A stretch of DNA of 1,812 nt from Escherichia coli (GTDB taxonomy: Bacteria; Pseudomonadota; Gammaproteobacteria; Enterobacterales; Enterobacteriaceae), in assembly GCF_003334255.1 (NCBI RefSeq), contig NZ_QOWU01000148.1. One strand, given 5' to 3'. The position numbers and the translations under genes were made by a program. Under the pieces are notes generated by a model, which ran no database searches, had not been told where the DNA came from, and saw nothing but the letters and a program-made list of their open reading frames with translations. Shown in pieces: positions 2 to 1,812 of this stretch (position 1 is the first letter of the stretch; each line of letters opens with the position of its first letter).

Positions 2-1812
2 AAGCACAAACGCGAGAATCCGCCCACGGTGGTATCGGAAGCCATGGCAGAACTTCGCGCCCTGCCCTCGTTTCTTGCCAGTCCGCTCATCCGGGACCTG
101 GCTCGCCTGAGCCGCAAACAGGAGAGCGCACGCCGGGAAGGGCTTAAGAATAACAGCGCATATGCGGCGGATAACTTCGTTCGTCATGGGCTGCGTGCCC
201 GCCTGAAACGTATCGCCCGTGTGAATGAACGCTTTGCCACCCCGGCCTTTAAGGCCACCGCCGCCCGCGAACGGCTGGATGAACTGCTTATACTGCCGCA
301 GCTGAGCCGTGACGAAATCCAGCACCTTGCCACCCTGACCGCCACCGCGTTTTCCGCCGCACTGGAGCGCGCATGTGATGAGATCATCGAAAAGACCGGC
401 AGGGGTGACGATGACCTGTTCACCTGGTTACTGACCTACCAGTCACTGGCACACATGGCGTTAAAACTGGGTATCACGCCACCCTGCTGGCCGTCGCTGG
501 AAATCAGGCCAGACCGCCGCACCGCCCCCAACCCGGAACGGGTGCCGGGTGCGGTCATGCGCCTTTCCTGTGCGACATGGTGGAACAGTCAGTTAAGACA
601 CCTCCGGGACATCTGGCGTGAAGAGCTGTTACGCGCCGCAGGTCTGGTGTCACGTAAGACATCGGTATATATCAGCCATGAAGCGTTACTGGACTGGCGC
701 GAAAAACGCCAGCGCACCCGCGATTTTCTGAAGGCCTGGGACATCGAGAACGAAGAGGGAGAACGGTTCAGCCTTGAGGATATCTACTGGGCAGGTCTCT
801 CTAATCCGCGTAACCGCCGTAACGAGATGATGACCTGCGCCCGGGGAATGGAGCAGGTCGCCGAAGCACGCGGCGACGTGGCGTTTTTCGTCACCGTCAC
901 AGCCCCTTCCCGTTTTCACAGCGTGAACGATGACGGCAGTCTGAACCCGAAATACTGCGGGGCAACGGTACGCGATGCCAGTGATTATCTGGTTTACCGC
1001 TTTTTCGCCGCCGTCCGCAGGGCCATCGACAAGGCCGGGCTGGGCTGGTACGGCGTGCGCACAGTGGAGCCCCACCACGACGGTACACCGCACTGGCACA
1101 TGCTGGTATTCACCAGCCAGGAAAACGAAGCCCGTATCACTGAAATCATGCGCAACGCCGCCATCAGGGAGGACCGCGCAGAGCTGGGTGATGATATCTC
1201 CCCGCGTTTTAAATGCGAAAAAATCGACCCGGCAAAAGGCACACCGACAAGCTATATCGCGACCTATATCGGTAAGAACCTGGACGCCAGCGCCTTCATG
1301 GGAAATGACCCGAAAACCGGCAAACCTTACATCGATAAGGAATCAGGCAAAACCATGGCCGAAACCGTGGAGAACGCCATCGGCTGGGCAGGCCTTCACC
1401 GCATCCACCAGTTCCAGTTCTTCGGTATCCCGCCCCGCCAGGTATGGCGCGAACTCCGCCGCCTTGCCGGGCAGATGGCCCGTAACCCGACTGCCCCACA
1501 GCGTCTGGACCATGACGACATTGACGCCATACTGGCCGCCGCCGACGTGGGATGTTTTGCCACCTATATCACCCGCCAGGGTGGTGTGCTCATTCCCCGC
1601 AACACGTACCTGGTCCGCACCGCATACGAAACTGCCGAAGAGGCCAACGACTACGGCGAATTCCCGCAACGCATTTACGGCGTCCGCGCCCCGTTACTCG
1701 GGGAGCGCTACACCATATGCACCCACCCGGACACCTGGAAACTGGTCAGAAAAGAAGCGAAAGCCGACAACAGCACGGACGAGGATTTTGACGTTGGGGG
1801 CGGCTTCGCCGC
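2..1812 (+). CDS. Replication initiation protein, rolling-circle HUH nicking endonuclease of the phage P2 gpA / 186 A family ('replication endonuclease'); partial, open at the 3' end and probably at the 5' end
   Basis: Seen in sequence: frame 2 is open for 603 consecutive codons with no stop (manual translation begins KHKRENPPTVVSEAMAELRALP and ends TDEDFDVGGGFA). It contains, in canonical order, motif 1 FFVTVTAP (881-907), the HUH motif HWHMLVF (1091-1111) and the paired-tyrosine motif YIATYIGK (1253-1276). Every ORF in the supplied track overlaps this frame on the other strand or in another frame. Established knowledge: this motif order with a Y-x-x-x-Y catalytic pair is characteristic of superfamily I rolling-circle initiators (phiX174 gpA, P2 gpA). 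Inference: P2 gpA is ~760 aa with the catalytic tyrosines around residue 450 (from memory); the pair here is at window codons 418/422, so the true start is likely a few tens of codons upstream and the stop a few hundred nt downstream. An in-frame ATG at 44-46 is a possible but unproven start. Confidence 0.9.
1091..1111 (+). other. HUH metal-binding motif (His-hydrophobic-His followed by hydrophobic residues) within the replication initiator CDS
   Basis: Codons cac tgg cac atg ctg gta ttc translate to H-W-H-M-L-V-F in the CDS frame, preceded by EPHHDGTP. The position between motif 1 and the tyrosine motif matches the canonical layout of rolling-circle Rep proteins. Confidence 0.75.
1253..1267 (+). 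other. Paired catalytic tyrosine motif (Y-x-x-x-Y) of the rolling-circle initiator
   Basis: Codons tat atc gcg acc tat translate to Y-I-A-T-Y, followed by I-G-K-N. Two tyrosines separated by three residues and followed by a lysine two residues later match the phiX174 gpA / P2 gpA active-site arrangement (established knowledge; alignment not run). Confidence 0.7.

Follow-up and report, generated by a model that had tools for sequence, protein, structure and literature searches.

An acidic and glycine-rich linker peptide of a P2-type prophage replication endonuclease is probably in large part a by-product of an origin embedded in its gene

Results

The window is an internal fragment of a P2-type gpA gene

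The stretch of DNA analysed here (the window) comprises 1812 nucleotides from an E. coli prophage, and frame 2 of the + strand is open across all 1812 bases. Window positions 2–1810 (+ strand) are an internal fragment of gpA, the gene for the P2-type replication endonuclease, as identified from the translation, nucleotide identity and assignment to PHROG 91, and they correspond to aa 86–688 of an 837 aa protein, with 149 aa of the protein remaining past the window end. The window shares 98.8% nucleotide identity with a 2514 nt CDS annotated as 'replication endonuclease' in a P2-like prophage of E. coli DETEC-S792, and 99.1% (17 mismatches) with the E. coli Logan contig L091. Both encode the 837 aa protein, and the full-length protein P0001 is 99% identical to the window protein.

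The Pfam Phage_GPA catalytic domain (PF05840) was found by hmmscan (E = 2.9e-106) at window residues 104–429, encoded by positions 311–1288 (+ strand), and in a profile search the full-length protein matched PHROG 91, 'nicking at origin of replication', over aa 4–826 (E = 2.2e-235). Two catalytic motifs can be read from the sequence. The HUH metal-binding motif, H-W-H within EPHHDGTPHWHM, is encoded at 1091–1099 (+ strand); alignment A1 shows it without variation, and alignment A5 with a conservation of at least 90%. The active-site tyrosine pair lies in Y-I-A-T-Y, encoded at 1253–1267 (+ strand), which has the pattern Y-x-x-x-Y, and both tyrosines (Y503 and Y507 of the full-length protein) are invariant in A1; two active-site tyrosines have also been described for P2 protein A (PMC3986222). 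The neighbours of gpA in L001 and L091 include genes for an SSB, a portal protein, a large terminase and a GPO scaffold, which is the early/replication region of a P2-like prophage. The profile matches, the HUH and tyrosine motifs and the gene neighbourhood together show that the window is a piece of a P2 gpA-type replication endonuclease gene. Site-specific nicking with covalent attachment to the 5' end is known biochemically only for P2 A (PMC8537503; PMC3986222).

The nearest deposited phage proteins, those of the P88/Xuanwuvirus type and of Citrobacter phage Shae_phiSM, are likewise annotated as replication endonucleases, and are 56–57% identical over 98–99% of the window protein. A megablast search of the window against deposited phage genomes gave no nucleotide-level match, and E. 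coli prophages are the only known source of the window type. An NCBIfam search returned no family and a sequence-profile search of the PDB returned nothing meaningful, while a Foldseek search of the PDB with the model described below gave weak HUH-like matches only (best E = 0.045; Helitron, AAV Rep), which support no claim.

A predicted disordered linker follows the folded region

The structure of P0001 was predicted with AlphaFold2 using 148 diverse sequences of the family, which a search of 1.84 billion representative proteins had supplied, giving a model with a mean pLDDT of 87.3 and a pTM of 0.75. An initial run with eight sequences, in which pLDDT fell below 50 even for the conserved aa 542–664, was too shallow to inform. 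In the deeper model pLDDT is 94–98 for blocks covering aa 100–670, and the last beta strand of this high-confidence globular region, KLVR, spans aa 665–668 (window 1739–1750, + strand). The region that follows, aa 669–727, is modelled without secondary structure, with pLDDT block means of 62, 46, 45, 39 and 51 and values below 50 at aa 678–687 and 694–716, low pLDDT being a proxy only for disorder. Its start, which contains the acidic and glycine-rich peptide, is encoded by window 1751–1810 (+ strand). C-terminal to it the model has helices at aa 728–751, a low-confidence stretch at 753–777 and a small alpha/beta domain at 779–830, with pLDDT rising to 78–87 at aa 721–750 and 81–88 at aa 781–830. 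Alignments of homologues show indels of up to about 10 residues in the same region and poor conservation, except for an island that is encoded by the origin (see below). The model and the alignments together show aa 669–727, about 58 residues, as a predicted intrinsically disordered inter-domain linker between confidently folded parts.

It had originally been predicted, from the sequence alone, that the segment at the 3' edge of the window is a flexible linker, a reading that burial of the segment inside a folded domain would contradict. The AlphaFold2 coil, the low pLDDT, the indels and the low conservation all agree with a flexible linker, and the segment is not buried in the model. The accompanying proposal, that the segment marks the boundary between the nuclease domain and a C-terminal domain, stands in part. 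The protein does continue past the window into a small C-terminal domain, but about 155 conserved, well-folded residues separate the end of the Pfam catalytic domain (window aa 429) from the linker, and the boundary is not simply one between a nuclease and a C-terminal domain.

The linker segment has been exchanged between divergent gpA genes

The codons at 1751–1812 read AAA GAA GCG AAA GCC GAC AAC AGC ACG GAC GAG GAT TTT GAC GTT GGG GGC GGC TTC GCC GC, and translate as K E A K A D N S T D E D F D V G G G F A. Within them, AKADNSTDEDFDVGGGFA is encoded in frame 2 by window 1757–1810, and STDEDFDVGGGFA corresponds to window 1772–1810. An acidic and then glycine-rich segment is therefore present at the 3' edge as had been proposed, with an offset of one base, position 1756 being the last base of a Glu codon and the in-frame range being 1757–1810. 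The segment holds the only 13-residue stretch with at least five Asp/Glu and at least three Gly in the 603-residue translation, and also the sole GGG. By itself a single stretch of acidic residues plus glycines is statistically unremarkable, and its significance comes from comparison with relatives.

Such a comparison shows that the segment is part of a mosaic patch. The window differs from L001 at 24 positions, 16 of them within 1751–1807, while against L003 there are 353 mismatches overall and none in 1736–1812. Positions 1736–1812 are accordingly identical to the otherwise ~80%-identical L003/L004 type within an otherwise L001-type gene, and the IMG/VR contigs L003 and L004 carry a linker/origin allele identical to that of the window. 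The same swap is found in P0001 at aa 663–686, where the left junction is slightly different. This pattern of mismatches indicates that the linker just upstream of an invariant core (see below) has been exchanged between otherwise divergent gpA genes.

One explanation of these observations is that the segment is a flexible acidic and glycine-rich protein linker and nothing else, selected for flexibility and solubility, and that the DNA has no role of its own. The low-pLDDT coil, the variation of the linker in length and sequence among homologues, and the free swapping of two alleles in nearly identical backgrounds would all fit it. What it would have to account for beyond this is the DNA that encodes and directly follows the segment.

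The nick core is constrained at the nucleotide level

The origin of P2 lies within the gpA ORF, and its nick sequence is conserved among P2-like phages (PMC8537503; PMC3986222); work on the P2 origin and nick by Liu and Haggard-Ljungquist (1993, 1994) is cited in PMC3986222 and PMC5694545. P2 is the only phage with an experimentally mapped nick. In the P2 GenBank record it is entered as 'nick site at ori' at nt 29892, a position within gene A that falls in GCGGCATCGCCGCGCCTCG/GAGTCCTGTCAATAACTGT (the slash marks the nick, here and below). The surroundings of the P2 nick are GGC ATC GCC GCG CCT CG/G AGT CCT GTC AAT AAC TGT, which read as G I A A P R S P V N N C.

In the nearest relatives of the window a core, CCTTG/GACTCGTGGCAATAACTGT, starts 2 bases past the window end, which puts the predicted nick 6 bases past that end. 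L091 is identical to the window over 1736–1812 and then continues ACCTTGGACTCGTGGCAATAACTGTCCCC, and the relatives' continuation after ...GGC TTC GCC GC is A CCT TG/G ACT CGT GGC AAT AAC TGT CC. The core, in its general form CCTYG/GASTNNTGKCAATAAC, is outside the window; in L091, L001 and L003 it immediately follows the window's last bases. To judge from relatives that are 98.8–99.1% identical, the source gene probably has the core as well, and by analogy gpA of the source prophage would nick at the position homologous to that of P2.

All 82 gpA loci compared, namely two E. coli/P2 records and 80 IMG/VR viral contigs whose proteins are 38–87% identical to P0001, have the core within gpA and always in one reading frame. 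An in-gene, in-frame core is likewise present in Vibrio, Salmonella PSP3, Yersinia, Mannheimia, Burkholderia and Pasteurella phages. An origin embedded in gene A is long known in P2, and it is recognised across the family.

Codon use was analysed in an alignment of 86 non-identical genes, which contains about 170 degenerate columns with at least 90% amino acid conservation. It can be seen that codon entropy is typically 0.5–2 in those columns, catalytic motifs included, whereas P, R, G, N, N and C of the core are each encoded by a single codon (entropy 0) across the 86 genes, unlike all other conserved columns. Eight of the nine variable columns in the 24 nt core are at codon positions 1 or 2, and seven of its eight third positions are invariant. 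Variation at codon positions 1 and 2 with fixed third positions is the opposite of what protein-level purifying selection produces, and fits a DNA recognition sequence. We conclude that the core is constrained at the nucleotide level, beyond what the protein requires. An overlapping gene was dismissed as the cause of this invariance, the invariant stretch being only about 26 nt and one alternative frame containing TAA.

The conserved peptide might instead be what is selected, with AAPWTRGNNC and the preceding GG forming a short linear protein motif, for instance one that docks a host replication factor, and with nucleotide conservation being secondary. The peptide is nearly invariant among proteins that are about 55% identical, 34 of 148 distant representatives of the family contain variants of the form [AGSC]PW/R/S-x3-[NS]N[CY], and pLDDT at aa 688–693 is slightly above that of the neighbouring residues. 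A protein motif does not account for six consecutive degenerate codons that each use one codon in 86 genes, in contrast to every other conserved column, those of the catalytic motifs among them, nor for variation that is mainly non-synonymous (W/R, T/S, R/P/C, G/V), and we consider it an unlikely explanation. The protein-motif and DNA-origin roles are not mutually exclusive.

A covarying hairpin lies directly 5' of the nick core

The bases directly 5' of the nick core, window 1800–1812, form a hairpin, GCGGC-TTC-GCCGC. The 5' arm, GCGGC (1800–1804), was delimited by covariation and stem scans and consists of the last two bases of Gly codon 2 and the whole of Gly codon 3. The pairing leaves the Phe codon, TTC (1805–1807), as the loop, and the 3' arm, GCCGC (1808–1812), identified from pairing and from relatives, is made up of an Ala codon and the first two bases of the next Ala codon.

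Hairpins at this place differ widely in sequence. That of the window is shared with L003, while the L001 allele has GTGCGGC-TTT-GCCGCAC, so that both of the swapped alleles keep a hairpin, and P2 has GCGGC-ATC-GCCGC. Further versions are GGGCGGC-CCT-GCCGCCC (L005), GGGCG-CTTG-CGCCC (L031), GGGCGAC-CCC-GTCGCCC (L034) and GGGGCGG-TCCTT-CCGCCCC (L030), together with GCGCC-TCT-GGCGC in a Yersinia phage, GGGAGC paired with GCTCCC in a Mannheimia phage and GCGCG-GCAAG-CGCGC in a Pasteurella phage. The distance from the end of the 3' arm to the nick is 3–6 nt in nearly all lineages, with Burkholderia as an outlier at 8 nt. A perfect stem of 5–7 bp that ends 3–8 nt (mostly 4–6) before the nick is present in 29 of 30 unique upstream sequences; in the lone exception, L010, a 6 nt duplication in the core shifts the anchor. 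Chance levels of the stem are 0.0005–0.1 per sequence, and the window's own stem, which is only 5 bp, has an individual p of about 0.04–0.05. Bases beyond the window would give this stem two further G:C pairs on the far side of a G-A mismatch.

Covariation was scored in successive alignments, as a gap-free MAFFT alignment (A2) misregistered hairpins with different loop lengths and was replaced by a same-register alignment (A3) and then by a covariance-model alignment (A4). In A3, with 10 sequences, 88.6% of cells are paired and two pairs show compensatory changes. In A4, with 27 distinct rows, 89.8% of cells are paired compared with 78.4% in shuffles (0/500), five of seven pairs have changes on both sides (3/500 shuffles), and the covariation score is 0.247 against 0.097 in shuffles (0/500) and at most 0.081 in slid controls, although A4 was fitted to the structure and its sequences are related by descent, so that these shuffle statistics overstate independence. 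The covariance model gave one match per locus.

An independent sample was obtained by scanning IMG/VR with a pattern that lies wholly 3' of the nick, which yielded 70 unique upstream sequences. Of these, 55 have a perfect stem of 5 bp or more at the expected distance from the nick, compared with 5% at random anchors and 5% in composition-preserving shuffles, and the sample contains 23 different stem sequences of at least 5 bp. The other 15 unique origin regions have no perfect 5 bp stem. For 46 of 71 unique sites in this sample the surrounding ORF matches a strict HUH pattern, and most others are in ORFs with several hundred upstream codons that the HUH pattern missed. Among seven stemless sequences, three (L096, L116 and L118) come from very short ORFs, and the search pattern may have matched them by chance.

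The folding stability of the 71 nt region is not exceptional relative to shuffles (z = −0.76), so that what supports the hairpin is its covariation and its position and not its stability. These results show that a hairpin covaries 5' of the nick. We infer that, either in single-stranded DNA or as an extruded cruciform, it helps gpA to recognise or expose the nick site.

Since transcribed inverted repeats also form in RNA, and this repeat is in a coding region, it could in principle act in the mRNA, as a ribosome pause, RNase site or transcription terminator, and not as an element of a DNA origin. Several observations make this improbable. An Rfam search of the origin region gave no match. A scan for promoters and terminators around the origin in L091 found none and there is no T-run after the repeat, which together rule out an intrinsic terminator. 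G-U pairs occupy only 2 of 186 cells in A4, and such near-exclusive Watson-Crick pairing is expected if both DNA strands must pair. The repeat is also held at 3–6 nt from the nick core in nearly all lineages sampled. We therefore favour a role for the repeat in the DNA origin.

The peptide largely reads out the DNA elements

Gly codons 2 and 3 (GGC GGC, 1799–1804) supply the 5' arm of the hairpin, TTC the loop and GCC GC(A), encoding Ala-Ala, the 3' arm. The peptide encoded by the arms varies by clade (GGxAA, GACA, GDPVA, GELAP, SASGA, SAASA) while the pairing persists. As the arms covary and the core keeps its synonymous sites, Gly-Gly-x-Ala-Ala can be understood as GGC GGC nnn GCC GCn, the arms of a hairpin read as codons, and the hairpin explains the glycine-rich composition at least as well as a need for flexibility does. 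In taking the composition as the mark of a linker, the original prediction was right about the structure but missed the reason that lies in the DNA, where the Gly and Ala codons are hairpin arms.

Part of the acidic stretch may be constrained by the DNA too. A semi-conserved DNA motif upstream of the hairpin, TTGACGTT (1788–1795), encodes part of D-F-D-V and belongs to a TTGAC(N)TT motif, whose reading frame in the P2 type is not that of the window type and which is occasionally present twice. Of 114 unique origin regions, 54 have a TGAC in the 22 nt that precede the hairpin on its 5' side, compared with 7% of random 22-mers. In the L091 scan TTGACGTT gave no sigma-70 promoter-like match, and its TTGAC does not belong to a consensus promoter.

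A linker without any role for its DNA leaves three things unexplained or ignored: the compensatory base-pairing of Gly and Ala codons while the residues change; an adjacent peptide whose codons change at positions 1 and 2 but not at synonymous sites; and the mapped nick of P2, which is in homologous sequence. We accordingly give this explanation little credence. The segment ...DFDVGGGFA(APWTRGNNC) is, on the evidence of the hairpin and the core, largely a passive translation of DNA elements, of a kind that a disordered linker can tolerate.

Discussion

The reading that we prefer, at a probability of roughly 0.85, is that the window encodes a P2-type rolling-circle initiator, gpA, whose origin is placed in the DNA for its own disordered linker, and that the acidic and glycine-rich peptide is largely a by-product of the origin DNA. 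The folded part of the protein would end at about window position 1751, where the long disordered linker is predicted to begin. The putative origin in the linker-coding DNA would consist of the TTGAC-type motif (1788–1795), the hairpin (1800–1812) and the core CCTTG/GACTCGTGGCAATAACTGT. By analogy with P2, gpA would cut one strand at CCTTG/G in its own gene and become linked through a tyrosine to the 5' end, and the free 3' end would prime rolling-circle synthesis. The anatomy of the site suggests that the hairpin may be recognised as a structure, or may extrude in supercoiled DNA and so expose the nick site, while the core of about 21 nt on the 3' side would supply sequence specificity. Placing the origin in linker-coding DNA could minimise the conflict between the two codes, and would keep the origin beside the site of gpA synthesis, fitting a cis-acting gene A. 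That P2 gene A is cis-acting is noted in the title of Liu et al. (1993).

A more specific version of this arrangement is a composite origin, in which a covarying G+C-rich hairpin 3–6 nt 5' of the nick is combined with the core of about 21 nt, GG-x-AA-PWTRGNNC, which is the best conserved peptide in the C-terminal third of the protein, is a translational by-product with no function as a protein motif, and the hairpin is an undescribed element for recognition or extrusion by gpA. We regard the odds for and against this version as even. Literature searches for a hairpin at the P2 origin found no description, the primary P2 origin papers being outside the scope of those searches. The window itself represents an E. 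coli prophage lineage that carries the already known arrangement of an origin embedded in gene A; the hairpin with its covariation and the analysis at codon level may add new detail.

For annotation, AAPWTRGNNC and the Gly/Ala run that precedes it mark the replication origin of P2-like prophages, and should not be taken for a protein functional site or a domain boundary alone. The locus is also a clean example of overlapping codes, in which a DNA element that is constrained both in structure and in sequence is in a coding region where disordered protein absorbs the constraint. If the hairpin is functional, it provides a testable model of how gpA finds or exposes its nick site on double-stranded, supercoiled DNA, and it would also agree with the cis-preference that is known for P2 gene A.

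The closest experimentally studied system is P2 itself. The P2 gene A protein and the window protein belong to the same Pfam family and share the HUH and two-tyrosine motifs, but they are only 31% identical and differ in length (761 aa and 837 aa, respectively). Their cores are in the same reading frame and at the same place in the protein, after the conserved region and about 140–150 aa from the C-terminus, and the P2 hairpin is at the same distance from the nick as the hairpin of the window type. The two cores differ at 4 of 21 bases (CCTTGGACTCGTGGC against CCTCGGAGTCCTGTC), giving APRSPVNNC in P2 and APWTRGNNC in the window type, and the linker upstream of the origin, which is acidic in the window type, reads PLTLKSGI in P2. 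A more distant homologous initiator is P12 (gene XII) of the corticovirus PM2, which is 33.5% identical to P2 gpA over 58% of P2 gpA. The PM2 cleavage site is annotated inside the gene, as it is in P2, but at 2253/2254, within the 5' part of gene XII. Near the 3' end there is another core-like sequence (DAPWSTENNC), where the hairpin is only partial.

HUH nuclease chemistry is common to conjugative relaxases, phiX174 gpA and Rep proteins of the pC194 type. The nic sites of MOB-F relaxases have an inverted repeat a few bases 5' of the cleaved phosphodiester, as does the window type, and the CTTG/ context of the window type resembles the nick sites of phiX174 and pC194. In contrast to the nic sites or origins of relaxases and HUH initiators, which are usually intergenic, that of the window type is translated within the linker of its own initiator.

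A conserved folded region beyond the PF05840 match

The folded core of gpA appears to be under-represented by the Pfam model PF05840. Approximately 155 residues that follow the end of the PF05840 match on the plus strand (window ~1289–1750, aa 515–668 of the full protein) are covered by no Pfam model; they are strongly conserved across the family, including the motifs FQFFGIP.RQVWRELRRL, AADxGxFAxYI and QGG, and have pLDDT values above 94 in the predicted structure model. Outside the window, C-terminal of the linker, full-length relatives carry a helical pair (aa 728–751) and a small α/β domain (aa 779–830). 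Neither could be matched to a known family, and this C-terminal part is highly variable in length among homologues, which range from 761 to 963 aa in total.

Sequence elements and variation around the origin

A semi-conserved DNA motif, TTGAC(N)TT, is found at window 1788–1795, 9–12 nt 5′ of the origin hairpin, and may be an additional origin element. The same motif lies upstream of the hairpin at loci L002, L005, L085, L127 and others, and TGAC is present upstream of the hairpin in 54 of the 114 unique origins, where 7% would be expected. The reading frame in which the motif is translated differs between clades, and the motif is occasionally doubled.

The nick core itself also varies. An IMG/VR gpA gene (L010, 3546–3579) contains a 6-nt tandem duplication within the core (GGACTC GGACTC), giving the peptide APWTRTRGNNC; as read from the sequence, the nick site in this gene would be either duplicated or displaced. 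At two further loci, L074 and L079, TAT replaces TGT, converting the Cys of NNC to Tyr, and this is among the few changes seen within the AATAACTGT portion of the core.

At five loci (L096, L116, L118, L130 and L204), the 3′ core pattern is matched exactly within a very short ORF rather than within a long one of the gpA type. No hairpin was found at the first three of these, and the matches at L130 and L204 have stems of 4 bp and 6 bp, respectively. These matches could be due to chance, could mark decayed genes or could represent origins located outside a gpA gene.

The last 77 bases of the window (1736–1812) are identical to the type found in the IMG/VR contigs L003 and L004, which are ~80% identical to it elsewhere, while the remainder of the window is of the type of the E. 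coli DETEC-S792 prophage locus (L001). Judged from these identities, window 1736–1812 is a short recombinant patch. Relative to the E. coli Logan contig L091, 10 of the 17 mismatches are concentrated in window 2–68, a clustering indicative of another mosaic boundary at the window's 5′ edge (1–68).

Comparison with phage PM2

In the record for the corticovirus PM2 (L083), a cleavage site is annotated at 2253/2254, within the 5′ portion of gene XII. Another sequence resembling the P2 core, GCCCCTTGGAGCACTGAAAATAACTGT (DAPWSTENNC), is present at 3507–3533, with only a partial hairpin. It lies near the 3′ end of gene XII, the position in the gene at which P2-like phages carry their origin.
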